This document shows positions 22,093-32,725 of a DNA stretch of 64,000 nucleotides, piece after piece. Position 1 is the stretch's first letter; every line of letters begins with the position of its first letter. The notes below the pieces were generated by a model, which was not told the origin of the DNA, did no database searches, and saw only the letters and a list, made by a program, of their open reading frames with translations. The translations under genes and the position numbers were made by a program. This DNA comes from Marinobacter sp. Lineage in GTDB: Bacteria; Pseudomonadota; Gammaproteobacteria; Pseudomonadales; Oleiphilaceae. Where the stretch lies: assembly GCF_048266785.1 (NCBI RefSeq), contig NZ_JBLWYX010000009.1, positions 52,325 to 116,324 on the forward strand. The letters run 5' to 3'.

Positions 22093-23613
22093 ATGGCCCA
22101 TGAAGAACTGCATCTCAATCTGCGCAACCTGACACTTGATGATTACGAGCAACTTCAGGTGTTAATGGATCGTGTTTATGACGATATTGGCGGCGCCTGG
22201 CCAAAGGACACCATCAAGGCACTGGTTGAACAGTTCCCGGATGGCCAGATTTGCATTGAGGACAAAGGCCAGCTCGTTGCCGTCGCGCTCACCGTGTCTG
22301 TTAAATATGAGCGATTCAGCAACCCTCATACTTATGACGATCTGATTAAACGGAACGAACAGATCAGGCATGACCCGAAAGGTGACTCCCTTTATGGGCT
22401 GGATGTATTCATTCACCCGGAGTACCGCGGCTACCGCCTTGGGCGGCGATTGTATGAAGCTCGCAAAGAGCTGTGCCGGTCCATAAACTTGCGCGCCATC
22501 CTTGCTGGTGGGCGCATACCTGGGTATTTCAAGTATTCAGATCAGTATTCACCTGCTGAATACATTGACCGGGTTGATCGCAGAGATATTTACGATCCGA
22601 TTCTGAGCTTCCAATTGTCGAACGACTTTCAGGTCACCCGACTGATGCACAAATACCTCCCGGAGGATGAAAAATCCCAGGGGTACGCCACCTTGCTGGA
22701 ATGGCGGAACATCCTCTATACCCCGCCCTCGTCGGTGCTGAACGAAAAGAAAACGCAGGTCCGGATGGGCGCAGTTCAGTGGCAGATGCGTGAATTCGGT
22801 TCCGTTGAAGAGGTGCTGGAACAGGTTGAGTACTTCGTGGATGCGCTGTCTGATTACAAGAGCGACTTCGCACTCTTCCCTGAGTTTTTTAATGCACCGT
22901 TGATGGGACTGACCGATCAGGTGGATCAGACCCGCGCTATTCGGTTCCTTGCAGGGTTTACCCAGCAATTCCGGGACAGAATGTCTGATATGGCGGTCAG
23001 CTATAACATCAACATCATCACTGGCTCCATGCCGCTGCTTGAGAACGACCGGGTTTATAATGTGTCTTATCTGTGCCACCGCGATGGCCGAGTGGACGAG
23101 CAACGCAAGATCCACATTACGCCCCACGAACGTCGTGACTGGGTTGTTGAAGGCGGGAACAAGTTTGAAGTCTTCGATACAGATTCCGGGCGCGTTGCGA
23201 TTCTCATCTGTTATGACATTGAGTTCCCTGAGCTGGGCCGAATTGCCGCAATTAATGAAGTTGACATTATTTGTGTGCCCTTCTGGACAGACACCAAAAA
23301 CGGCTATTTGCGGGTTCGTCATTGCGCCCAGGCCCGGGCCATTGAAAACGAATGTTATGTGGTGATCACCGGCAGTGTCGGGAACCTGCCAAAAGTGGAA
23401 AACCTTGACGTGCAATATGCGCAATCGTCGGTGTTCTCGCCATCTGATTTCGCTTTCCCTCACGACGCAGTAATGGCAGAGACAACGCCCAATACCGAGA
23501 TGATCATGTTCTCGGATATGGACCTGGAAAAGCTCACATTGGTAAGGAACGAAGGGTCAGTAACCAACCTTAAAGACCGAAGAATTGACATGTACGAAAT
23601 TATCACCCGTTAG
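22093..23613 (+). CDS. GNAT acetyltransferase fused to carbon-nitrogen hydrolase (nitrilase superfamily)
   Basis: N-terminal GNAT (VFIHPEYRGYRLG); C-terminal E-K-C triad (FPEFF, QRKIHITP, ICYDIEFP). Confidence 0.9.
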   Translation: MAHEELHLNLRNLTLDDYEQLQVLMDRVYDDIGGAWPKDTIKALVEQFPDGQICIEDKGQLVAVALTVSVKYERFSNPHTYDDLIKRNEQIRHDPKGDSLYGLDVFIHPEYRGYRLGRRLYEARKELCRSINLRAILAGGRIPGYFKYSDQYSPAEYIDRVDRRDIYDPILSFQLSNDFQVTRLMHKYLPEDEKSQGYATLLEWRNILYTPPSSVLNEKKTQVRMGAVQWQMREFGSVEEVLEQVEYFVDALSDYKSDFALFPEFFNAPLMGLTDQVDQTRAIRFLAGFTQQFRDRMSDMAVSYNINIITGSMPLLENDRVYNVSYLCHRDGRVDEQRKIHITPHERRDWVVEGGNKFEVFDTDSGRVAILICYDIEFPELGRIAAINEVDIICVPFWTDTKNGYLRVRHCAQARAIENECYVVITGSVGNLPKVENLDVQYAQSSVFSPSDFAFPHDAVMAETTPNTEMIMFSDMDLEKLTLVRNEGSVTNLKDRRIDMYEIITR

Positions 23614-23716
23614 GTGTTGAAGAACCGCCGTATGGCACTGATGGCGTTGCAAAACCTTTGGCCAGTGTCTATTGTTTAATCAATATCAAGTCAGCCTTTG
23701 CAGAGACTCAGTATTC

Positions 23717-24115
23717 ATGAAAGAAGCGTTGCCCGATCTTGTCGCCCGTTTCAGAATCCGGCAGGGCCTGTTCCGCAAGGAGCAGGTCGAGGCCGCGCTT
23801 TTTGAATTGGATGCTTACGGTTGCGTTATGAAGACGGACAAGATGTTCAATCCCGGCGATACCGTTGTGCTTGATCTGATTATGGACATGCCGTTTGATA
23901 ACATTCGTGCTGAAAATATTACAGGTTTAATTACCGAGCGTAGAAAGCACTGCAGCAACTTCTTCTATTCTATTGATTTTGTTGAGTTAAACTCTGATGG
24001 CGGCACGGCACTCGAAGAAAAGCTGCGCCGTATCAGAGAGGTACTTTCAAAAAAGCAGTCGTTGAAATCACGTCGTTCTTCAGGTTCCATGCCCGGCTTC
24101 CGGCAGATGGCCTGA
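23717..24115 (+). CDS. PilZ-like beta-barrel protein, degenerate
   Basis: ELDAYGC in the position of DxSxxG, PGDTVVLDL, YSIDF; probable start ATG 23717 (ORF track 23672). Confidence 0.5.
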   Translation: MKEALPDLVARFRIRQGLFRKEQVEAALFELDAYGCVMKTDKMFNPGDTVVLDLIMDMPFDNIRAENITGLITERRKHCSNFFYSIDFVELNSDGGTALEEKLRRIREVLSKKQSLKSRRSSGSMPGFRQMA

Positions 24116-24155
24116 TCACTATTTTCGTTCTACCTGCCTGCAAGGAGACAATCTC

Positions 24156-24797
24156 ATGGCGAAGAAAGCCAAGGCGAGTGTTGAAAAGATCGTAAAAAAA
24201 GTTAACAAGGAATTTGAGAAAACCTCATCCCAGATCGAAGGTCTGGTCAGCGATGCGATGAAGCAGCTCGATACACTGCAACATCAGGTTCAGGAGCCGA
24301 TTCGCAAACTTCTTAAAGAAGTTGATGAAGTGCGCGAGCGGGAAATGAAACGTTTTAATGACGAATTCGAGCGTCGTCTGGACGAGTTCCATGAACTGCA
24401 ATCCAACATTCTTGAACGTCTGGGCGTTGCTTCGAAAGAAGACATCCGCAAGGCTGAAAAAGAAAGTAAAAAAGACAGCAACAAAGTGAAAGCGGCTAAG
24501 GCAAGCACCCCTGCCAAGAAGCCTGCAGCGAAAAAACCAACGCCTAAAAAAGCGCCGGCCAAAAAGCCTGCTGCAAAAAAAGCACCCGCTGCCAAGACTC
24601 CAAAGCCCGTGGATAAAAGCGATCTCACGCTGGTTAAAGGCGTCGGACCGGCTACCGCCAAAAAGATGAAAGAAGCCGGAATCACGTCCATCGATCAGAT
24701 TGCCAACCCATCGGCGGCTGATCAGGAAAAGCTGAATGCTTTCTCGAATATCAAAGGATTTGATCAACTCAGTGCCGAAGCCAAGAAAATTAACTGA
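24156..24797 (+). CDS. Phasin/PhaF-like coiled coil, AKKP-repeat linker and C-terminal helix-hairpin-helix protein
   Basis: LGVASKEDI, repeats AKKPAAKK..., DLTLVKGVGPATAKKMKEAGI. Confidence 0.7.
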   Translation: MAKKAKASVEKIVKKVNKEFEKTSSQIEGLVSDAMKQLDTLQHQVQEPIRKLLKEVDEVREREMKRFNDEFERRLDEFHELQSNILERLGVASKEDIRKAEKESKKDSNKVKAAKASTPAKKPAAKKPTPKKAPAKKPAAKKAPAAKTPKPVDKSDLTLVKGVGPATAKKMKEAGITSIDQIANPSAADQEKLNAFSNIKGFDQLSAEAKKIN

Positions 24798-27073
24798 TGC
24801 GAACGCCTGACCAGCCTGTTTTACGGGACATTGTCCTGATTGGCGGCGGGCACAGCCACGTCGGGGTACTCAAACGGTTTGCAATGAAACCGGTGCCCGG
24901 CGTTCGGCTGACCCTCATTTGCCGCGATACCCACACGCCCTACTCCGGAATGCTGCCTGGCTACGTGGCAGGACACTACAGCTACGACGATGTGCACATC
25001 GATCTTAGCCGCCTGGCAGAGTATGCAGGTGCACGCTTTTACCGGGCCGAAGCCTATGGTATTGATCGCTCCAGCAAGCGGGTAATCTGTAAAGGCCGTC
25101 CGGATGTGCCTTACGACATACTGTCGATCAATATCGGTTCATCCCCCAGAGTGAATGAAGTGGACGGGGCGTCGCAGTACGCGGTGCCGGTCAAGCCAAT
25201 TACAGGTTTCAATAACCGCTGGCTCGCCCTTCTTTCACGCATTGAAAATCATGAAGGGCCGCTCACGATTGGTGTTGTGGGCGCGGGTGCTGGTGGTGTT
25301 GAGCTGACGCTGGCAATGCAGTACCGACTCAGAAACGAGTTGGAACAGCGCGGCCGGGATCCCGGCCAACTGCATTTCCACTTATTTGATGCTGCCAATG
25401 AAATTCTCCCCACTCACAATGAAAAAGTGCGCGAGATCTTTCGGAAGACCCTCTCCGAGCGTGGGGTAAAGCTACATCTCGGCTCACCAGTAGAAAAAGT
25501 CAGTGAAGGGTTTTTACGCACAGCCGCTGGCGAATCCTTGCAGACAGACGAAGTTCTCTGGGTAACCCGAGCCGGCGGCCCGGCATGGTTGGAGGAAACA
25601 GGGCTGGCACTGGATGACGGCCAGTTCCTCAGAGTGCGGGACACCCTGCAGGTTGAAAATGATGACAATATATTCGCGGCGGGCGATATTGCTAATGTAG
25701 TCAATCACCCCCGCGAAAAAGCCGGTGTGTTTGCGGTGCGCCAGGGCCCGCCTCTGGCAGATAACCTCAAACGCATGGCTTTGGGCCAAACGCCCAAAGA
25801 TTTCCACCCTCAGAAAAAGTGGCTGGCACTGATCAGCACCGGCGACAAATACGCTGTTGCCTCTCGCGGTGATATGCAATTTGATGGCGCCCTGGTGTGG
25901 CGCTGGAAGGACTGGATAGACCGTCGCTTCATGCAGAAATTTACAGACCTCCCGGCTATGGATGATGGGGGTGTGCTGCCCGATACTGCCGCAGCACAAA
26001 ATCCGGAGGAAGCGTCTCAGGCTATTTCTGCCGTTGCCATGCGTTGTGGTGGTTGCGGCGCAAAGGTTGGCAGTACGGTTCTTTCAAGGGCGTTGGGTGA
26101 GCTCCGGCCCATTGAGCGAGACGATATTCTTATTGGCCTGCACGCACCGGATGATGCCGCCGTTCTGCGGGTTCCACCCGGCAAAGCCGTAGTACATACC
26201 GTGGATTTCTTCCGCGCCTTTATTGATGACCCTTACACGTTTGGTCGCGTTGCTGCCAACCACGCCTTGGGTGACGTCTTTGCCATGGGCGCTGAAGCAC
26301 AAAGTGCGACCGCAGTGGCCACGGTACCATATGGCATTGAGTCCAAAGTGGAGGACGTGGTTTTCCAGATGATGTCGGGTGCAGTGGATGTATTAAATGA
26401 AGCCGGTTGTGCTTTAGTCGGTGGCCACACGGGTGAAGGCCGCGAGCTTGCCTTGGGTTTTGCGGTGAATGGCCTTATTGACCCCGATGAAGTGATGAGC
26501 AAAGGCGGTTTGCGGGCCGGTGATGTTCTGATCCTCACCAAACCCATTGGCACCGGAACTTTGTTTGCCGCTCACGCACGCCTGGCAGCCAAAGGCCGCT
26601 GGATTGATTCCGCCCTCGCTTCCATGGTGCAGTCGAATAAGAAAGCCGCAGATTGCCTGCGCAGTTTCGGCTCCAAAGCCTGTACGGATGTGACCGGTTT
26701 CGGCTTGCTGGGCCATCTGGTGGAAATGACGCGGCCGTCCGGTGTGGACGCCGAGTTGGATCTATCAGCAATCCCCATTCTGCCGGGTGCGGAAGAAACG
26801 GCCGCAGCAGGCATTCTCAGTTCCCTGCAACCGGCCAACATACGGCTGCGCCGGGGTATCCGGGATCAGGAAAAGTGGGTGAAGCACCCGCGCTACGCCC
26901 TGATCTTTGATCCACAGACTGCCGGCGGCTTGCTGGCGAGTGTCTCGGCCGATAAGGCGGAAAACTGTGTCCGGGAGCTCAAAGCCCTGGGTTATCCACA
27001 CACCGCAGTCATCGGGCGGGTTTTGCCCCAGGATGAAAGCGGGCCGATTGAGCCGATTACTCTAAGAGAATGA
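24797..27073 (+). CDS. selD: Selenide, water dikinase with N-terminal FAD-dependent (NDH-2-like) oxidoreductase domain
   Basis: N-terminal IGGGHSH, PYSGMLPG, FAAGD; C-terminal MRCGGCGAKVG, DDAA, LVGGHT, TKPIGTG, DVTGFGLLGHL, DPQTAGGLL. Confidence 0.95.
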   Translation: MRTPDQPVLRDIVLIGGGHSHVGVLKRFAMKPVPGVRLTLICRDTHTPYSGMLPGYVAGHYSYDDVHIDLSRLAEYAGARFYRAEAYGIDRSSKRVICKGRPDVPYDILSINIGSSPRVNEVDGASQYAVPVKPITGFNNRWLALLSRIENHEGPLTIGVVGAGAGGVELTLAMQYRLRNELEQRGRDPGQLHFHLFDAANEILPTHNEKVREIFRKTLSERGVKLHLGSPVEKVSEGFLRTAAGESLQTDEVLWVTRAGGPAWLEETGLALDDGQFLRVRDTLQVENDDNIFAAGDIANVVNHPREKAGVFAVRQGPPLADNLKRMALGQTPKDFHPQKKWLALISTGDKYAVASRGDMQFDGALVWRWKDWIDRRFMQKFTDLPAMDDGGVLPDTAAAQNPEEASQAISAVAMRCGGCGAKVGSTVLSRALGELRPIERDDILIGLHAPDDAAVLRVPPGKAVVHTVDFFRAFIDDPYTFGRVAANHALGDVFAMGAEAQSATAVATVPYGIESKVEDVVFQMMSGAVDVLNEAGCALVGGHTGEGRELALGFAVNGLIDPDEVMSKGGLRAGDVLILTKPIGTGTLFAAHARLAAKGRWIDSALASMVQSNKKAADCLRSFGSKACTDVTGFGLLGHLVEMTRPSGVDAELDLSAIPILPGAEETAAAGILSSLQPANIRLRRGIRDQEKWVKHPRYALIFDPQTAGGLLASVSADKAENCVRELKALGYPHTAVIGRVLPQDESGPIEPITLRE

Positions 27074-27075
27074 GC

Positions 27076-28065
27076 TTAAAGGGTGCTTCTCTCGGAGCTG
27101 CGCTGCACCGCAAGGGACAGCGCCTGCTCCAGGGATTCCCGCTCTTTTTCCGGCGTAAACAGGCTGGCAAGCTGAGCAACCTGTTTACGTAACGTCTCCA
27201 AAAACTCCGTATCACTTTCCGCACGCAAGAGTAGCTCGGCGAGTGCCTGGGTGTCCCCAACCGGGTAGTAGCCGGCGTAATCCTCACCAAGTAACCCGGT
27301 ATTCCCGGAAATATCCGAGGCAATAACCGGCAGGCCGGCACGACAGGCTTCCGAAACAACGTTCGCCCCACCCTCCATCACCGAGCTCATCACCAGCAAT
27401 TGGCTTTCAACCATCAACTGGTCTATCTGCCCTTTTTCCAGTTCGCCGAGCCATCTGAAACGGGGGTTCTCCTGCATTTCCTGTTTCGCGAGATTTTCCC
27501 AATATGCATCGTGGGGTTTGCCCGCACACGAGACGCGGATGCGAGATTTGGAGGGTAACAACCTGGACGCCAGAGCTGCCCGCAGCGAATCTTTTTCATC
27601 CCGTAGATGGCCGATGACGCAAACATCAAAACAAGATGAGTCAGAAACTGCTGTTCCAGCGGGGCCGTCAGACTGTTCAGCCGACTGAAAAAGCGTAACC
27701 AGTTTGTCCCGAACATGCTCTGGAATATCGCGGCCAACCTGTGCGTGCAAACCAATCAACGCATCGGCCGCCTGCATGGAATAGAGGGTTTGTTCAGGAT
27801 ATTCGTACTGGTGCCGGTAGATATCCGTTCCTGTGAGCGCCACAACCAAGGGCTTGCCGGGCCATGTGTCCCTGAATAGGCGAACGGCCTCATGGCTGCG
27901 CCACGCATGCAGAGCTATAAAAAGATCACAAGGCTCACCGTTATAGGCGGTCACAACAGAGACCTTATGCCCCGCCTGCTCCAGCAACGTTTGCCAACGC
28001 TCTGCGGTTGCCCGGTTGCCGGCTTTCGAGCCCGGGCCTGCCGGCGTGATCATGATGATATCCAT
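27076..28065 (-). CDS. senB: Selenosugar synthase SenB-type glycosyltransferase (TIGR04348-like)
   Basis: ITPAGPGSKAGNRATAERW, ALHAWRS, LTGTDIY, GHLRDEKD, SSVMEGGANVVSEA; adjacent to selD. Confidence 0.88.
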   Translation of the reverse strand: MDIIMITPAGPGSKAGNRATAERWQTLLEQAGHKVSVVTAYNGEPCDLFIALHAWRSHEAVRLFRDTWPGKPLVVALTGTDIYRHQYEYPEQTLYSMQAADALIGLHAQVGRDIPEHVRDKLVTLFQSAEQSDGPAGTAVSDSSCFDVCVIGHLRDEKDSLRAALASRLLPSKSRIRVSCAGKPHDAYWENLAKQEMQENPRFRWLGELEKGQIDQLMVESQLLVMSSVMEGGANVVSEACRAGLPVIASDISGNTGLLGEDYAGYYPVGDTQALAELLLRAESDTEFLETLRKQVAQLASLFTPEKERESLEQALSLAVQRSSERSTL

Positions 28066-28260
28066 AGCGCCCTTTGGTATAACGAGGCCCTTTCAGAGCC
28101 GGGACAGAATTTTGATAGACTTGCATGGAATTTCATGGGAATAGTGCCCGGATACTTGACCTATTTATACCCGTAATCCGTATAGCTGTTCAGGGTTGGG
28201 GGGAATCAGAGTATCCTGCACCTTTGCTTTATCAATCACATAACCGGTCGAGGATTTCAA

Positions 28261-29136
28261 ATGGCTTTGAATCTTATACGGAAGTTGATGGTTTCCAGCT
28301 TGTTCTGTTTCACCGCTGCTTCGGCAACGGCAGAGACGTTTGTGTTCACTGCGATCCCCGATGAAGATGAAACAAAACTCGTAGAGCGGTTTCGCGGTGT
28401 AGCGGCTTATCTCTCTGAGCAACTGGATGTGGATGTTCGCTACATTCCGGTCAAGTCTTACGCGGCGGCTGTTTCAGCGTTCCGTAACAACCAGGTTCAG
28501 TTGGCTTGGTTCGGTGGCCTTTCAGGCGTTCAGGCGCGCCGATTGGTGCCGGGCTCTGAAGCCATCGCCCAAGGTGTGGAAGACGAAGCATTTGAGACCT
28601 ACTTTATTGCCAATACCAATACGGGTATCGAGCCAGCCGACGAACTCTCCGGGCTGAAAGACCAGCTGCAGGGCAAAACCTTTACCTTTGGCTCCAAAGG
28701 TTCAACCTCTGGCCGGCTCATGCCGGAATTCTACGTTCGGGATACCTTTGGTGAGAAGCCAGAAGACTTCTTCTCGCGCGTTGGTTTCAGCGGCAATCAC
28801 ACCCGCACCCTTCGTCTGGTTGAAGCCGGCACCTACGAGGTAGGCGCACTCAACTTCCAGGTTTGGGAGAAAGAGCTGAGTGATGGAAACATTGATACCG
28901 ACGCAGTCCAGGTTATCTGGAAAACACCCGCCTACCCTGATTATCAGTGGACAATCCGTGGCGACGTGGACGAGCGCTTTGGTGAAGGCTTCAAACAGCG
29001 TGTTACCGAGGCACTGTTGAATCTTGATAACCCGGAGCTTCTGGAAAGCTTTCCGCGTTCGGGCTTTATTCCTGCCTCCAATGACGACTATGAGCCGATT
29101 CGTAAAACAGCCGAAGAGATTGGAATCCTCGATTAA
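28261..29136 (+). CDS. PhnD-like ABC substrate-binding protein, putative selenate/selenium oxyanion type
   Basis: Signal peptide; FVFTAIPDEDET, LAWFGGLSGVQAR, FGSKGSTSGRLMP; selD/senB context. Confidence 0.8.
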   Translation: MALNLIRKLMVSSLFCFTAASATAETFVFTAIPDEDETKLVERFRGVAAYLSEQLDVDVRYIPVKSYAAAVSAFRNNQVQLAWFGGLSGVQARRLVPGSEAIAQGVEDEAFETYFIANTNTGIEPADELSGLKDQLQGKTFTFGSKGSTSGRLMPEFYVRDTFGEKPEDFFSRVGFSGNHTRTLRLVEAGTYEVGALNFQVWEKELSDGNIDTDAVQVIWKTPAYPDYQWTIRGDVDERFGEGFKQRVTEALLNLDNPELLESFPRSGFIPASNDDYEPIRKTAEEIGILD

Positions 29137-29786
29137 TGTCAGGCTTCGATCTTTCCGGCCTTACGGCCTCATTCAGCGGCAAGCGGGTCATTGGCCCGCT
29201 GTCGCTGAACGTTAATCCGGGCGACAAGATTGCACTGGTTGGTAAAAGCGGTGCGGGTAAATCCACCCTTATACGGCTGATTCACGAACGGGTTGACCGG
29301 GATTCTTCCCTGATTCCTCAGGATCTGGGGTTGGTGAATGCCCTTTCCGTGTTTCATAACGTATTCATGGGGCAGTTGGACAAGCATTCAACCTGGTACA
29401 ACACCGTAACGCTTGCGCGCCCGTTCGCGAAAGACCGTGCCGAGGTACACACTCTGCTGCAGTCCCTCGGAATGACAGAAAAGCTATGGATTCCCACAGC
29501 CTCTCTTTCTGGCGGGCAACGCCAGCGTGTCGCCATTGCACGGGCCCTCTATCGGAACGCGCCGGTACTGCTTGCCGATGAGCCGGTTTCAGCTCTTGAT
29601 GGCCCCATGGCTAACTCGGTTATGACGGATCTTCGGGATCGCTTTTCAACCAGCATTATTGCTCTGCACGATGTGGACCTGGCGCTGAGTTATTGCACCA
29701 GAATCGTTGGCATACAGGACGGTCAGATTGCTCTGGATCAGCCCAGTGAAAATCTTGCAGCCTCAGACATTATGTCTCTTTACTAG
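29136..29786 (+). CDS. ABC ATP-binding protein (PhnC-like)
   Basis: GKSGAGKST, LSGGQRQRVAIARAL, LLADEP; TAATG overlap with the SBP gene. Confidence 0.9.
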   Translation: MSGFDLSGLTASFSGKRVIGPLSLNVNPGDKIALVGKSGAGKSTLIRLIHERVDRDSSLIPQDLGLVNALSVFHNVFMGQLDKHSTWYNTVTLARPFAKDRAEVHTLLQSLGMTEKLWIPTASLSGGQRQRVAIARALYRNAPVLLADEPVSALDGPMANSVMTDLRDRFSTSIIALHDVDLALSYCTRIVGIQDGQIALDQPSENLAASDIMSLY

Positions 29787-29803
29787 GTAACACGGCCCGT
29801 TTC

Positions 29804-31270
29804 ATGTTCTCTTCCCCAACGGTTCGTACCAGCCTTGTTTTCCTCGCCATTGCTTTGGTGGGTTTACTGTTCGCGGATATTGCCATTACCGCATCAAACC
29901 CATGGCGGGATCTGGGTAACTTTTTCCTTGGCATCGTAACACCCAACTTTTTCAGCACTGAAGGCCTGATGACCGCGCTGTTGAGAACAGTAGCGTTCGC
30001 CTTTGTGGGGGTTGCTCTTGGCAGCATCTGCGGGTTCCTGCTGGCGCTGGTTTATAAATCGTTACCCGTGCGAATTTTCTCCGCTTTTATTCGCGCCATT
30101 CACGAGCTCTTCTGGGCTCTGATCTTCCTGCAGTTTTTCGGATTTCATCCGCTGACAGGCGTGCTGGCCATCGCCATTCCTTACGCAGGCATCTTTGCCA
30201 AGGTTTATTCCGAGATTCTGGAAGAAGCCGATCCGGAACCGGGCCGTGTCCTGCCGCCTGGCACGGGGAATATCACGGCGTTTCTCTACACGCGTATCCC
30301 GGATTGTTGGGTGAAAATGCGCACCTATACGTCCTACAGGCTGGAGTGTGGCCTGCGTTCAAGTGCGATACTTGGTTTCGTTGGTCTGCCAACACTCGGT
30401 TTCTACCTCGAGGCGTCGTTTTCTCAAGGTCTGTATTCCGACGCCGGTGCCATGCTGATTCTGTTTTATGTGTTGATCGCCACCATGCCATTCTGGGTGC
30501 GGCCAAAGCTTCTGCCGGTGTACGTATTGGGAGCCCCCTTCTTTCTGGGCGAGGGCCTTCCGATTGTGTGGGGCAACGTAGAGCGCTTTTTCACCGAAGA
30601 CATTGTGCCCGCGCCGCTGCGGAACGGTGAAGGTCTGACGGGGCTTATGCCCTGGCTGAATGATCTGATGATCAACGAGGCCATGCCGGGAATCTGGAAC
30701 ACCATTGTGCTCACCCAGATTGCACTCGTGGCTACGGGGGTTCTCTCGTTGTTGGCGTTCCCTCTGATCTCCAACCACTTTGGTGGCCCTATGCGGCGCA
30801 ACGCAGGGCACGTCGCTCTGGTGATTGCCCGGTCTACGCCTGAATACATCTTGGCGTACATCCTGCTGCAGCTCTGGGGGCCATCAATGCTGCCTGCGGT
30901 TGTTGCACTGGCGCTGCATAATGGTGGGATTATCGGCCACCTGATTGGCCGACAAACCAATTCCATCAAGCTCCGGGCCGATGCAGCAACCGGGTTTAAC
31001 CGGTATAGCTGGGAGTTGGTGCCTCGTGTTTACCGCTCGTTTCTGGCGTTTCTGTTCTACCGCTGGGAAATCATCATGCGGGAAACAGCCATTCTGGGGA
31101 TTCTGGGCATCTACACGCTGGGGTTCTATGTCGACAGCGCCATACAGAACATCCGGTTTGATCGCGCCATGGTGTTGATCCTGGTAACCGCCCTGCTCAA
31201 CATTGGCGTCGATACGCTTGGTCGCTACATCCGTCGCAAGCTCGCTCTGCAAACCATGCCAACCTGCTGA
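29804..31270 (+). CDS. ABC permease, duplicated PhnE/PtxC-type domains
   Basis: RAIHELFWAL..YRLECGLRSSAILGFVG and RSTPEY..YRWEIIMRETAILGILG repeats. Confidence 0.88.
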   Translation: MFSSPTVRTSLVFLAIALVGLLFADIAITASNPWRDLGNFFLGIVTPNFFSTEGLMTALLRTVAFAFVGVALGSICGFLLALVYKSLPVRIFSAFIRAIHELFWALIFLQFFGFHPLTGVLAIAIPYAGIFAKVYSEILEEADPEPGRVLPPGTGNITAFLYTRIPDCWVKMRTYTSYRLECGLRSSAILGFVGLPTLGFYLEASFSQGLYSDAGAMLILFYVLIATMPFWVRPKLLPVYVLGAPFFLGEGLPIVWGNVERFFTEDIVPAPLRNGEGLTGLMPWLNDLMINEAMPGIWNTIVLTQIALVATGVLSLLAFPLISNHFGGPMRRNAGHVALVIARSTPEYILAYILLQLWGPSMLPAVVALALHNGGIIGHLIGRQTNSIKLRADAATGFNRYSWELVPRVYRSFLAFLFYRWEIIMRETAILGILGIYTLGFYVDSAIQNIRFDRAMVLILVTALLNIGVDTLGRYIRRKLALQTMPTC

Positions 31271-31294
31271 AACCCGTTCCCGGTGGCCTTGGTT

Positions 31295-32725
31295 TTAAAG
31301 AACCGGGCCGATGGTTGCGATAACGTTGTGCCATATTCTTTCGTGGTAGTGCCAGGCAAGAACCGTTGGCAAGGTGACCACTTCAGAGCGGCTGAGGTAA
31401 GTCTGCTGCCGTTCTTCAATTGCCAGGGTCGTGGCCTCGTCCTGCAGAAGGATGTTGTTTTCATAATTCAGATCAAAGCTGCGCAAATCGAGATTTGAAG
31501 ACCCGATCAGACTGATCTTTCCATCGATCGTGAGGGTTTTGGCATGAAGGAGTCCGCCCTTGAACTCATGGATGATGCAGCCTGCATCAAGTAGTCGGTG
31601 GTAATAACTGCGGCTGGCAGCGGCGACAATCAAGCTGTCATTTACCTTGGGAAATATCAACGAAACCGACACGCCCCGGTAGGCGGTTGCGCACAGTGCT
31701 TCCAGAACCGTTGCATCAGGCACGAAGTATGGTGTGGTTAGTGTCAGTCTGTCCTGGGCACAGGCGATCAGGTTGGCAAAGAGCTGTGGTGTGGCTCCGT
31801 GACGCTCGGTTGGCCCAACACCCATAACCTGTGCCGGGAATCCTCCATCGGTGGGCCCGCGAGATAACGCAATGCCATCCAGGGATTCATTGGTTGCCTG
31901 CATCCAGTCACTGGCAAACAGCAACTGGTTCTGAACCACCACCGGCCCCGTAAAGCGGAGCATGATGTCTACCCAGGGTGCGTATTTCGCTTTAACCAGA
32001 AATTCCGGATCAGCAGAATTTCGGCTGCCGCAATAGGTGACGCGTGAATCAATCACCGTGATCTTGCGGTGGTTACGAAGATCCAGCCGGCTGGTCAGAA
32101 TGGTGCGGATCGGGTGCTTCAGCGATAGAGCTACAGCAAGATGAACGCCTGCCTCTCTCATGCGCTGCCAGAGCGCGGAGTTAATCATCGCACGTGACCC
32201 CAGCCCATCCGCCATAGCGCGGCATGTAATGCCTCTGTGGGCTGCGCGGATCAGTGCTTCGGCGATGGCATGGCCGGTATTGTCATCAATCCATATGTAA
32301 TACAGCACGTGCACATGATCAATGGCGGCATCAATGTCGGCAACCATCCGGGTAAGGGTTTCGTTGCCGTCAGCCATCAATTCGGCGGCATTTCCCATGG
32401 ATGGATGAAAGCCATTAATCGAACCCGCATACCGGAATGCCGAGAGGTAAACCGGGTCGATCAGTTTCCCTGTGCTGGTCGCCTCGCCCATAAACCAGGA
32501 GGCTTTGGCTCTTATTTCTTCGAAGATTTCTTTGTGTCGCTTATCCGCACGGTTGCCAAGGTCTGTTTCGCCAAAGAGGAAATACATTGCACTACCGAAA
32601 TAGGGCAAAAGGTTAAGTATGACGAACCAAGCCAGTCTTCCCGGAGGCGAAAGGTCATCGCGCAGAAGAATCCGGATCGTGAATAAAAGGACCAGAAGTG
32701 TGTGGAGTAAAAGAATAACGCCCAT
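31295..32725 (-). CDS. cls: Cardiolipin synthase
   Basis: Two N-terminal TM; two HKD motifs (NHRKITVID, LHAKTLTID); probable start ATG 32725 after AAGGAAG. Confidence 0.93.
   Translation of the reverse strand: MGVILLLHTLLVLLFTIRILLRDDLSPPGRLAWFVILNLLPYFGSAMYFLFGETDLGNRADKRHKEIFEEIRAKASWFMGEATSTGKLIDPVYLSAFRYAGSINGFHPSMGNAAELMADGNETLTRMVADIDAAIDHVHVLYYIWIDDNTGHAIAEALIRAAHRGITCRAMADGLGSRAMINSALWQRMREAGVHLAVALSLKHPIRTILTSRLDLRNHRKITVIDSRVTYCGSRNSADPEFLVKAKYAPWVDIMLRFTGPVVVQNQLLFASDWMQATNESLDGIALSRGPTDGGFPAQVMGVGPTERHGATPQLFANLIACAQDRLTLTTPYFVPDATVLEALCATAYRGVSVSLIFPKVNDSLIVAAASRSYYHRLLDAGCIIHEFKGGLLHAKTLTIDGKISLIGSSNLDLRSFDLNYENNILLQDEATTLAIEERQQTYLSRSEVVTLPTVLAWHYHERIWHNVIATIGPVL

Follow-up and report, generated by a model that had tools for sequence, protein, structure and literature searches.

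Within a 64,000-nucleotide stretch of Marinobacter sp. DNA (contig NZ_JBLWYX010000009.1, positions 52,325 to 116,324 of the forward strand; the whole stretch is referred to below as the window), genes for a flavoprotein::SelD fusion and for the selenosugar synthase SenB lie next to an ATP-binding cassette (ABC) importer with PhnD-, PhnC- and PhnE-like components. The question raised by this locus is what the importer carries and which selenium product it serves. The comparisons described below indicate that the importer is tied to selenophosphate supply and to no single product, and that the locus is probably the standard Marinobacter locus for selenium acquisition and activation, with a selenosugar that would feed the antioxidant ovoselenol. 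Statements about function in this strain are drawn from its sequence and from experiments on relatives. The five open reading frames (ORFs) of the locus lie where the initial annotation had placed them:

24797-27073, + strand: flavoprotein::SelD fusion with a selenophosphate synthetase of the SenC type, 758 aa (TIGR03169 and TIGR00476)
27076-28065, - strand: SenB selenosugar synthase, a GT-B Se-glycosyltransferase, 329 aa (TIGR04348)
28261-29136, + strand: periplasmic substrate-binding protein (SBP) of the TIGR04553/PhnD1 type, 291 aa
29136-29786, + strand: PhnC-like ABC ATPase, 216 aa
29804-31270, + strand: fused double PhnE-like permease, 488 aa, with two PhnE-like halves

As had also been described there, selD and senB converge; the selD stop codon (TGA, 27071-27073) and that of senB (27076-27078, TTA on the + strand) are separated by a gap of 2 bp. 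At its other end, senB diverges from the SBP-ATPase-permease genes over 195 bp (28066-28260).

The importer accompanies selD across several gene orders

Gene order was compared in 80 related loci from named genomes, each fetched with the binding protein, and in two genome collections: a family sample of 151 genomes and an order sample of 401 genomes that are at least 90% complete, the related genomes in these samples being non-independent. The window order, in which fused selD converges on senB and senB diverges from SBP-ATPase-permease, was present in 46 of the 80 loci and is not a chance juxtaposition; the closest locus among the named genomes, that of Marinobacter maritimus CK47, shares 88-99% protein identity for the nine genes at the site and next to it. 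Fused selD was followed directly by the importer, with senB absent, in seven loci, and unfused selD lay just upstream of the importer in five. A further five loci held senB and the importer without an adjacent fused selD, and the importer stood alone in the fetched flank of the other 17, several of which are on short contigs. Wherever a related locus extended far enough, the permease gene was collinear with those for the SBP and ATPase.

The family sample gave a similar picture. An SBP scoring above the cut-off was found in 122 of its 151 genomes and SenB in 92, and in nearly every senB-bearing genome senB lay about 250 bp from the SBP gene. Twenty loci in which senB was absent or distant were inspected, and 18 of them keep the importer beside selD; in 16 the importer directly adjoins the flavoprotein::SelD fusion, either as SBP-ATPase-permease-fusion or as fusion-SBP-ATPase-permease. 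Unfused selD was one gene away from the importer in three inspected loci (the intervening gene in one, G025, being mnmH), and in two the importer was alone, with selD, senB and ovsA together 70-90 kb away. The association with mnmH recurs: Marinobacterium and Porticoccus have the order selD-mnmH-SBP-ATPase-permease, and in several genera of the window's family mnmH lies immediately upstream of the SBP gene, forming mnmH-importer-ndh::selD operons (for example in G008, at 2988804-2989799 and 2990018-2990803).

At the level of the order, 98 of the 401 genomes contained the SBP, and 97 of these 98 also contained selD, as compared with 213 of the 401 genomes overall; the single SBP-positive genome without selD had a borderline SBP score of 251 bits. 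In at least 50 of the 98, the SBP gene was no more than 15 kb from selD. With non-independent genomes a Fisher P value carries no straightforward meaning, but the association held in families with patchy selD; in one family, the sole selD-positive genome of nine was also the sole SBP-positive one.

These counts bear on the earlier description of the importer as dedicated to the SenB line, which they do not support: the importer follows selD, adjoins it where senB is missing, and occurs in mnmH operons. Since the importer is found with selD irrespective of senB, it appears to serve selenophosphate synthesis in general, and we conclude that senB joined an importer-selD unit that already existed. 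The occurrence of the importer with selD in four gene orders within one family, with or without senB and also in mnmH operons, is new to this analysis.

Two variants of the locus were observed in passing. Fused selD has been lost from the site, with senB and the importer kept, in Marinobacter nauticus, M. litoralis, M. fuscus and relatives (L051, L054, L056, L057, L069); among genomes of that type, G072, G074 and G076 have an unfused selD elsewhere, and a few other genomes (G041, G048, G054 and G069) have both kinds of selD. Litchfieldella rifensis (L100) has a compact cluster, egtD < fusion-selD > senB < NHISS gene > SBP-ATPase-permease, which places the importer inside a complete selenoimidazole cluster. 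The NHISS gene product is only 40% identical to the OvsA of the genome studied here, and is possibly a SenA.

SelD and SenB retain their catalytic residues

The fusion protein begins with an FAD/NAD(P)H domain resembling type II NADH dehydrogenases (NDH-2) at residues 11-382 (nt 24827-25942), which matches TIGR03169, 'Nterm_to_SelD', with 509 bits (cut-off 310), and also Pfam Pyr_redox_2; its nearest solved structures are NDH-2 enzymes (4NWZ, 72 bits). The SelD domain follows at residues 415-720 (nt 26039-26956; TIGR00476, 306 bits, cut-off 125), with the active-site cysteine and lysine present in its glycine-rich N-terminal loop, C417-G-G-C420-G-A-K423. The 'not-SelD' fusion class TIGR04369 was considered and rejected, the protein scoring 475 against a cut-off of 700. 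This selD is the only copy in the genome, which is 99.8% complete.

Across ten fusion proteins of the family, C417 and C420 are the sole invariant cysteines, so any thiol chemistry would be confined to SelD, the flavin domain having no redox disulfide of its own. We infer that the flavin domain reduces selenium for the SelD to which it is fused. The Ndh-SelD fusions reported previously likewise combine an NDH-2-like N-terminus with a cysteine-type SelD bearing a CxxC motif, and account for about 40% of cysteine-containing SelDs in ocean metagenomes (Romero et al. 2005; Zhang et al. 2008, PMC2398784, PMC2432076); their suggested function is the reduction of a selenium compound that SelD then uses (Zhang et al. 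2008). The protein of the window does not differ from them in kind, and is additionally paired with SenB.

SenB was identified by TIGR04348 (415.6 bits, cut-off 300) and by its match to the Variovorax paradoxus SenB structures 8JJQ/8FBX (168 bits). When aligned with 8JJQ, the window protein keeps N17, T20, H53, R56, T78, T80, R155, K158, E231 and E239. The residues of V. paradoxus SenB found by mutagenesis to be important, namely K158 (cleavage of the Se-P bond), the selenophosphate pocket formed by N20, H58, R61, T83, T85 and R155, and E231 and E239, are all conserved in the window SenB; H235 of the EGGAHV motif is an asparagine. By analogy with its characterised relatives, the protein is predicted to combine selenophosphate with a UDP-sugar to give a 1-seleno-sugar. 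An ovsA mutant of M. vinifirmus accumulates SeGlcNAc, which shows selenosugar formation in vivo in that species (Kayrouz 2024, PMC11030361).

The reading of this stretch as a selenium locus therefore holds: SelD retains its cysteine and lysine and SenB its catalytic residues, and the link between importer and selenium has strong comparative evidence. The locus differs from the senA-senB-senC selenoneine cluster of V. paradoxus (Kayrouz 2022, 10.1101/2022.04.13.486033), to which its SenB and SelD/SenC are homologous with conserved catalytic residues. It has no senA, its acceptor enzyme would be an unlinked OvsA, its SelD is fused to a flavoprotein, and its predicted product is ovoselenol.

The selenosugar is predicted to be an intermediate of ovoselenol synthesis

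The initial annotation had regarded the locus as a self-contained line with a dedicated importer; on such a view the selenosugar would be the end product, or would feed an undescribed metabolite. Consistent with this, the 64-kb window holds no selenoxide synthase gene, and senB and the importer share the 195-bp divergent control region. A search of the whole genome has already largely refuted the idea. Two DinB/FGE-sulfatase enzymes were found, EgtB on contig C17, where it is followed by EgtD, and a second enzyme on contig C8. The latter (C8:87982-89352) is an orthologue of OvsA, giving 643 bits to OvsA 8U41/8U42, 183 to EgtB and 176 to SenA (8K5I/8RYZ); it has the catalytic tyrosine (Y403) and, as histidine-binding Met/Gln/Gln-Ala, M406, Q410, Q435 and A436. 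An OvsM-type stand-alone N-pi-methyltransferase is encoded on contig C1 (TIGR04345, 307 bits), so that senB, senC, ovsA and ovsM all occur in this genome, and SelU/MnmH is encoded on contig C5 (351 bits). Use of selenium for selenocysteine was rejected, as no selA was found in the genome search.

OvsA was present in 91 of 93 SenB-positive genomes of the family sample, and the two proteins occur in the same genera; ovsA lies directly behind senB in some of them, but not in Marinobacter. The same four enzymes make up the ovoselenol pathway of M. vinifirmus and Halomonas utahensis, and the OvsA found here is closely orthologous to the H. utahensis enzyme of known crystal structure, with the same substrate-binding motif. 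In M. vinifirmus, which makes ovoselenol from selenite, the ovs genes co-occur with senBC yet are likewise separated from them on the chromosome, and Marinobacter is the main ovs genus (Kayrouz 2024, PMC11030361). Judged from gene content and from M. vinifirmus, the selenosugar of the window most likely feeds ovoselenol, and the prediction of ovoselenol as the product of this particular locus is new here. Given a single selD alongside both SelU/MnmH and the ovs genes, the fused SelD would supply two pathways. The claim of a self-contained line thus fails on three counts, in that the selenosugar would be an intermediate, OvsA and OvsM are encoded on other contigs, and SelU draws on the same, sole SelD; the importer, moreover, accompanies selD in some 30 genomes of the family without senB. 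We now regard such a line as barely credible.

A different end product, selenoneine, would result if the C8 enzyme were SenA acting on hercynine supplied by the EgtD of this genome. The NCBIfam model for SenA (NF041186) does accept the C8 protein, with 434.9 bits against a cut-off of 420; egtB and egtD are present on C17; and egt genes usually pair with sen genes (Kayrouz 2024, PMC11030361). The C8 protein is nevertheless far closer to OvsA than to SenA by the structure-based scores given above, and has Met/Gln/Ala at the positions at which SenA has Tyr/Asn/Phe, a swap that converts OvsA into a hercynine-using enzyme (Kayrouz 2024, PMC11030361). With a stand-alone OvsM also encoded, and ovoselenol produced by a member of what is the main ovs genus, we consider a selenoneine pathway very unlikely. 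The SenA assignment was accordingly discarded as a near miss, since the model just passes its cut-off and the hercynine-binding Tyr/Asn/Phe motif is lacking. It is also an annotation trap, because the NCBIfam model names OvsA a selenoneine synthase and so predicts the wrong metabolite for Marinobacter. The presence of egtB-egtD together with ovoselenol genes, and without OvoA, is a less usual pairing, egt/sen and ovo/ovs being over-represented relative to other combinations (Kayrouz 2024, PMC11030361). That study discusses neither the importer nor the flavoprotein fusion; 'transporter' there concerns OCTN1 only.

Beside ovsA, on the same strand and ending 32 bp upstream of it, lies the gene for a 621-aa permease of the SLC13/DASS type with two TrkA-C domains (C8:86085-87950). 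The same placement recurs in 8 of the 12 relatives sampled; the permease may transport a pathway substrate or product, or its position may be plain synteny.

The importer belongs to the PhnD1 family

The SBP, whose signal peptide ends between ASA and TAE, matches TIGR04553 with 430 bits (cut-off 250) and Pfam Phosphonate-bd with 211 bits. TIGR04553 is named 'putative selenate ABC transporter substrate-binding protein', a model of type hypoth_equivalog, and RefSeq gives the same name to the Marinobacter orthologues and to the protein of Synechococcus CC9311. Assignment of the three importer proteins to the PhnCDE equivalogs was rejected, as the scores fell below the cut-offs for PhnD (TIGR03431, 147 against 261), PhnC (TIGR02315, 167 against 266) and PhnE (TIGR01097, 204 against 217), the ATPase and permease matches each coming in two stretches. 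By comparison with Synechococcus CC9311 PhnC, about 25 residues are missing from the ATPase after Walker A and before the Q loop, a deletion that recurs in relatives, including Marinobacterium and other genera; the catalytic motifs (Walker A, Q62, LSGGQ, Walker B and H178) are all retained. PtxABC and PhnCDE importers share with the window importer the fold family of the binding protein (cluster F), the ATPase family and the permease family.

Comparison of the family profile with solved structures gave the highest scores to the picocyanobacterial PhnD1 proteins, 309 bits for 7S6G (Synechococcus MITS9220) and 278 for 5LQ5/5LQ8 (Prochlorococcus MIT9301), followed by PtxB (153), HtxB (75) and E. 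coli PhnD (70), with ArrX and AioX also far behind. Conversely, TIGR04553 gives the crystallised PhnD1 proteins 337 and 303 bits (cut-off 250), which makes them members of that family. Ligand binding in 7S6G involves Y44, S124-T125-S126, H156, D203 and Y204, with D11 and N174 as capping residues (Shah et al. 2023, PMC10284923). Their equivalents in the SBP of the window, Y67, S148-T149-S150, H180, D227 and Y228, with D34 and N198 as caps, are identical, and are invariant in eleven selD-linked proteins; D227 corresponds to D203/D205 of PhnD1. The PhnD1-PhnC-PhnE genes are also arranged in the same way, and their permease is likewise a fused double one (PMC10284923). The differences are that the residue before the STS motif is glycine in the window SBP and serine or asparagine in PhnD1, that the window ATPase has the 25-residue deletion, and that the cyanobacterial phnD1CE genes are not beside selD, as the window importer is.

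Selenite is favoured as the substrate

In bacteria, selenium is usually said to enter through carriers of sulfate or phosphate; YedE and the SAO system are predictions, and to our knowledge no dedicated bacterial selenium importer has been demonstrated. The initial annotation had held that the substrate of the importer was predicted from context only. That statement needs amending, in that PhnD1, a member of the same family, has crystal structures and measured affinities. The dissociation constants for phosphite are 50-120 nM (Prochlorococcus MIT9301) and 1.7-2.8 µM (Synechococcus), those for phosphate 26-200 µM and those for methylphosphonate 17-110 µM (PhnD1 literature, including PMC10284923). 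Hypophosphite is not bound, which has been read as a need for three trigonally arranged oxygens, and sulfate is excluded from the 7S6G site (Shah et al. 2023, PMC10284923). The published role of PhnD1 is the uptake of phosphate, phosphite or phosphonate, and selenium is unmentioned in those papers and absent from the single ligands named in them. According to the same literature, PhnD1 is present in all picocyanobacteria, its expression is not governed by phosphate and the strains do not grow on phosphite or methylphosphonate, a physiological role which its authors call paradoxical. The combination of phosphite binding with regulation by phosphate starvation had been named as the finding that would speak against a selenium importer; for these close family members, the binding has been observed and the phosphate regulation has not.

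Selenite is a trigonal pyramid like phosphite, and near pH 8, as in seawater, it is partly protonated; selenate is a fully ionised analogue of sulfate. From this chemistry we lean towards selenite as the imported species: it shares the trigonal shape of phosphite, it is protonated and so could donate to the pocket aspartate, and the pocket residues are those of PhnD1. Selenite, moreover, has to be reduced before it can serve SelD, and this would account for the fusion to a flavoprotein; under the proposal of Zhang et al. (2008), a reductase fused to SelD is needed only for selenium species more oxidised than selenide.

Our reading of the pocket thus departs from the TIGR04553 name, a context-based prediction of selenate transport. 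Selenate (SeO4 2-) is a major dissolved selenium species in oxic seawater. The corresponding aspartate of the phosphate-binding protein was, however, reportedly shown by Luecke and Quiocho in 1990 to exclude fully ionised sulfate, and D227 as an acceptor should in the same way disfavour a fully ionised anion; the 7S6G site, as noted, excluded sulfate. Moreover, the reduction of selenate to selenite would normally proceed via molybdoenzymes and not through an NDH-2-type flavoprotein. The NCBIfam and RefSeq name is matched by the 'putative selenate transporter' gene reported near many sen clusters (Kayrouz et al. 2022, 10.1101/2022.04.13.486033), but the former is itself a prediction carried by a hypoth_equivalog model, and taken together these points make selenate an unlikely cargo.

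Several observations weigh against selenite uptake for a reductase-fused SelD as well. Seawater selenite is sub-nanomolar, so that a much tighter site would be needed. Over half of the selD-positive genomes of the order sample (116 of 213) have no importer, which is therefore not required for selenium use and is one route among several; the phnD1CE genes of Synechococcus CC9311 have no selD within 10 kb; and the five Marinobacter loci noted above hold senB and the importer together without fused selD. The flavin domain contributes no invariant cysteine in the ten fusion proteins compared. No measurement of selenium-compound binding was found in the papers searched for the TIGR04553/PhnD1 family, nor is the importer mentioned by Lin et al. 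(2015) in their work on new selenium genes. Finally, the closest solved homologues bind phosphite (50 nM-3 µM), phosphate and methylphosphonate.

This last point, together with the conservation of every PhnD1 ligand residue in the window SBP and the Pfam and JGI annotation as phosphonate-binding, would fit a transporter of phosphorus (phosphite, phosphate or methylphosphonate), as PhnD1CE has been read, with no meaning attached to its place beside selD. That explanation does not account for the distribution of the family: all but one of the 98 SBP-positive genomes carry selD against a background of 53%, and for at least half of the SBP genes selD is no more than 15 kb away, in four orders and in mnmH operons. 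The genetic context gives it little help either. The operon includes no ptxD-like (2-hydroxyacid) dehydrogenase, its neighbours being senB and a cardiolipin synthase gene, although no genome-wide search for ptxD was made; no C-P lyase PhnJ was found in the genome; and the window contains no E. coli-type Pho box at up to three mismatches. A separate canonical PhnD/PhnC pair is present on contig C4, and PhnD1 itself is not phosphate-regulated, its cyanobacterial hosts being unable to grow on phosphite or methylphosphonate. We consider a phosphorus transporter improbable, and retain selenite as the favoured substrate. The canonical phosphonate/phosphite importer on C4 (177498-181214) adjoins a D-amino-acid dehydrogenase gene.

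A conserved element separates senB from the importer genes

The divergent control region contains one further feature, found by alignment of the senB/SBP intergenic regions of Marinobacter:

28179-28219, + strand: 41-nt conserved intergenic element

Its consensus is CGTATAGCTGTTCAGrGTT-N6-AATCA-N-GGTATCCTG. The element includes a -35 hexamer (TTCAGG, 28189-28194), a 17-nt spacer and a -10 hexamer (TATCCT, 28212-28217), with a GTATAG box upstream. It is probably a sigma-70-like promoter plus operator, the GTATAG box being a candidate for the operator. A position weight matrix scan found the element once in the 4.58-Mb genome; the possibility that it marks a regulon including ovsA, ovsM or mnmH was rejected on the basis of this single site, and the dispersed ovs and mnmH genes are thus not joined in a visible regulon. 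An Rfam search of 23500-31500 gave no match, even at E = 1, and a scan for consensus promoters and terminators gave nothing over shuffled background.

Genes upstream of selD are probably conserved backbone

Upstream of the fusion lies a gene whose stop codon overlaps the fusion start (TGATG):

24156-24797, + strand: Lys/Ala/Pro-rich protein with a helix-hairpin-helix (HHH) domain, 213 aa (Pfam HHH_5)

The HHH gene is probably co-transcribed with selD, and a role for its Lys-rich product in selenium metabolism is doubtful. It belongs to a block at 22093-24797 that also encodes a GNAT/carbon-nitrogen-hydrolase fusion protein (506 aa) and a 147-aa ORF without family match. In loci from which selD and senB have moved (L031, L032, L051), the whole block stays beside the importer. 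All three genes were accordingly rejected as parts of the selenium module, since they stay put when selD and senB are elsewhere; because its position is kept without selD or senB nearby, the HHH gene is better described as conserved backbone synteny than as a proven module part.

Proposed pathway and implications

In the pathway that we propose, the PhnD1-type ABC importer (SBP, ATPase dimer and fused permease) would take up a small selenium oxyanion, with selenite or hydrogen selenite favoured. The NDH-2-like flavin domain would pass electrons from NAD(P)H, and selenium held on the CxxC pair of SelD would be reduced to the level of selenide, from which SelD and ATP would form selenophosphate. 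Two users of selenophosphate are predicted in the genome, SenB and SelU/MnmH. SenB would form N-acetyl-1-seleno-glucosamine, to be converted to ovoselenol by the unlinked OvsA (C8) and OvsM (C1), and the unlinked SelU/MnmH (C5) would form 2-selenouridine in tRNA.

Much of this was known already: that senB and selD are paired and serve the synthesis of selenoneine and ovoselenol, that the genes are split in Marinobacter, that Ndh is fused to SelD, and that a 'putative selenate transporter' occurs near sen clusters. The locus itself represents ordinary, previously described Marinobacter selenium metabolism, and its value lies in the comparative evidence that it provides.

The pocket shared with the paradoxical PhnD1 ties the substrate question of the window to the cyanobacterial one. 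The genomes of Prochlorococcus marinus and Synechococcus carry an Ndh::SelD fusion and ybbB (Romero et al. 2005). A selenite importer would address the puzzle of a PhnD1 that is ubiquitous in picocyanobacteria, is not regulated by phosphate and binds a phosphite that its hosts cannot use, alongside the Ndh::SelD and ybbB of P. marinus and Synechococcus. We therefore put forward, as a tentative proposal that may well prove wrong, that the TIGR04553/PhnD1 proteins form, with their ABC partners, the bacterial importer dedicated to selenite and feeding SelD that has long been sought, and that the binding of phosphite by PhnD1 is isosteric mimicry. If this were true, the SelD-fused flavin domain would act as a reductase taking selenite to selenide, and a major 'phosphonate transporter' of the ocean would be reassigned to the selenium cycle.

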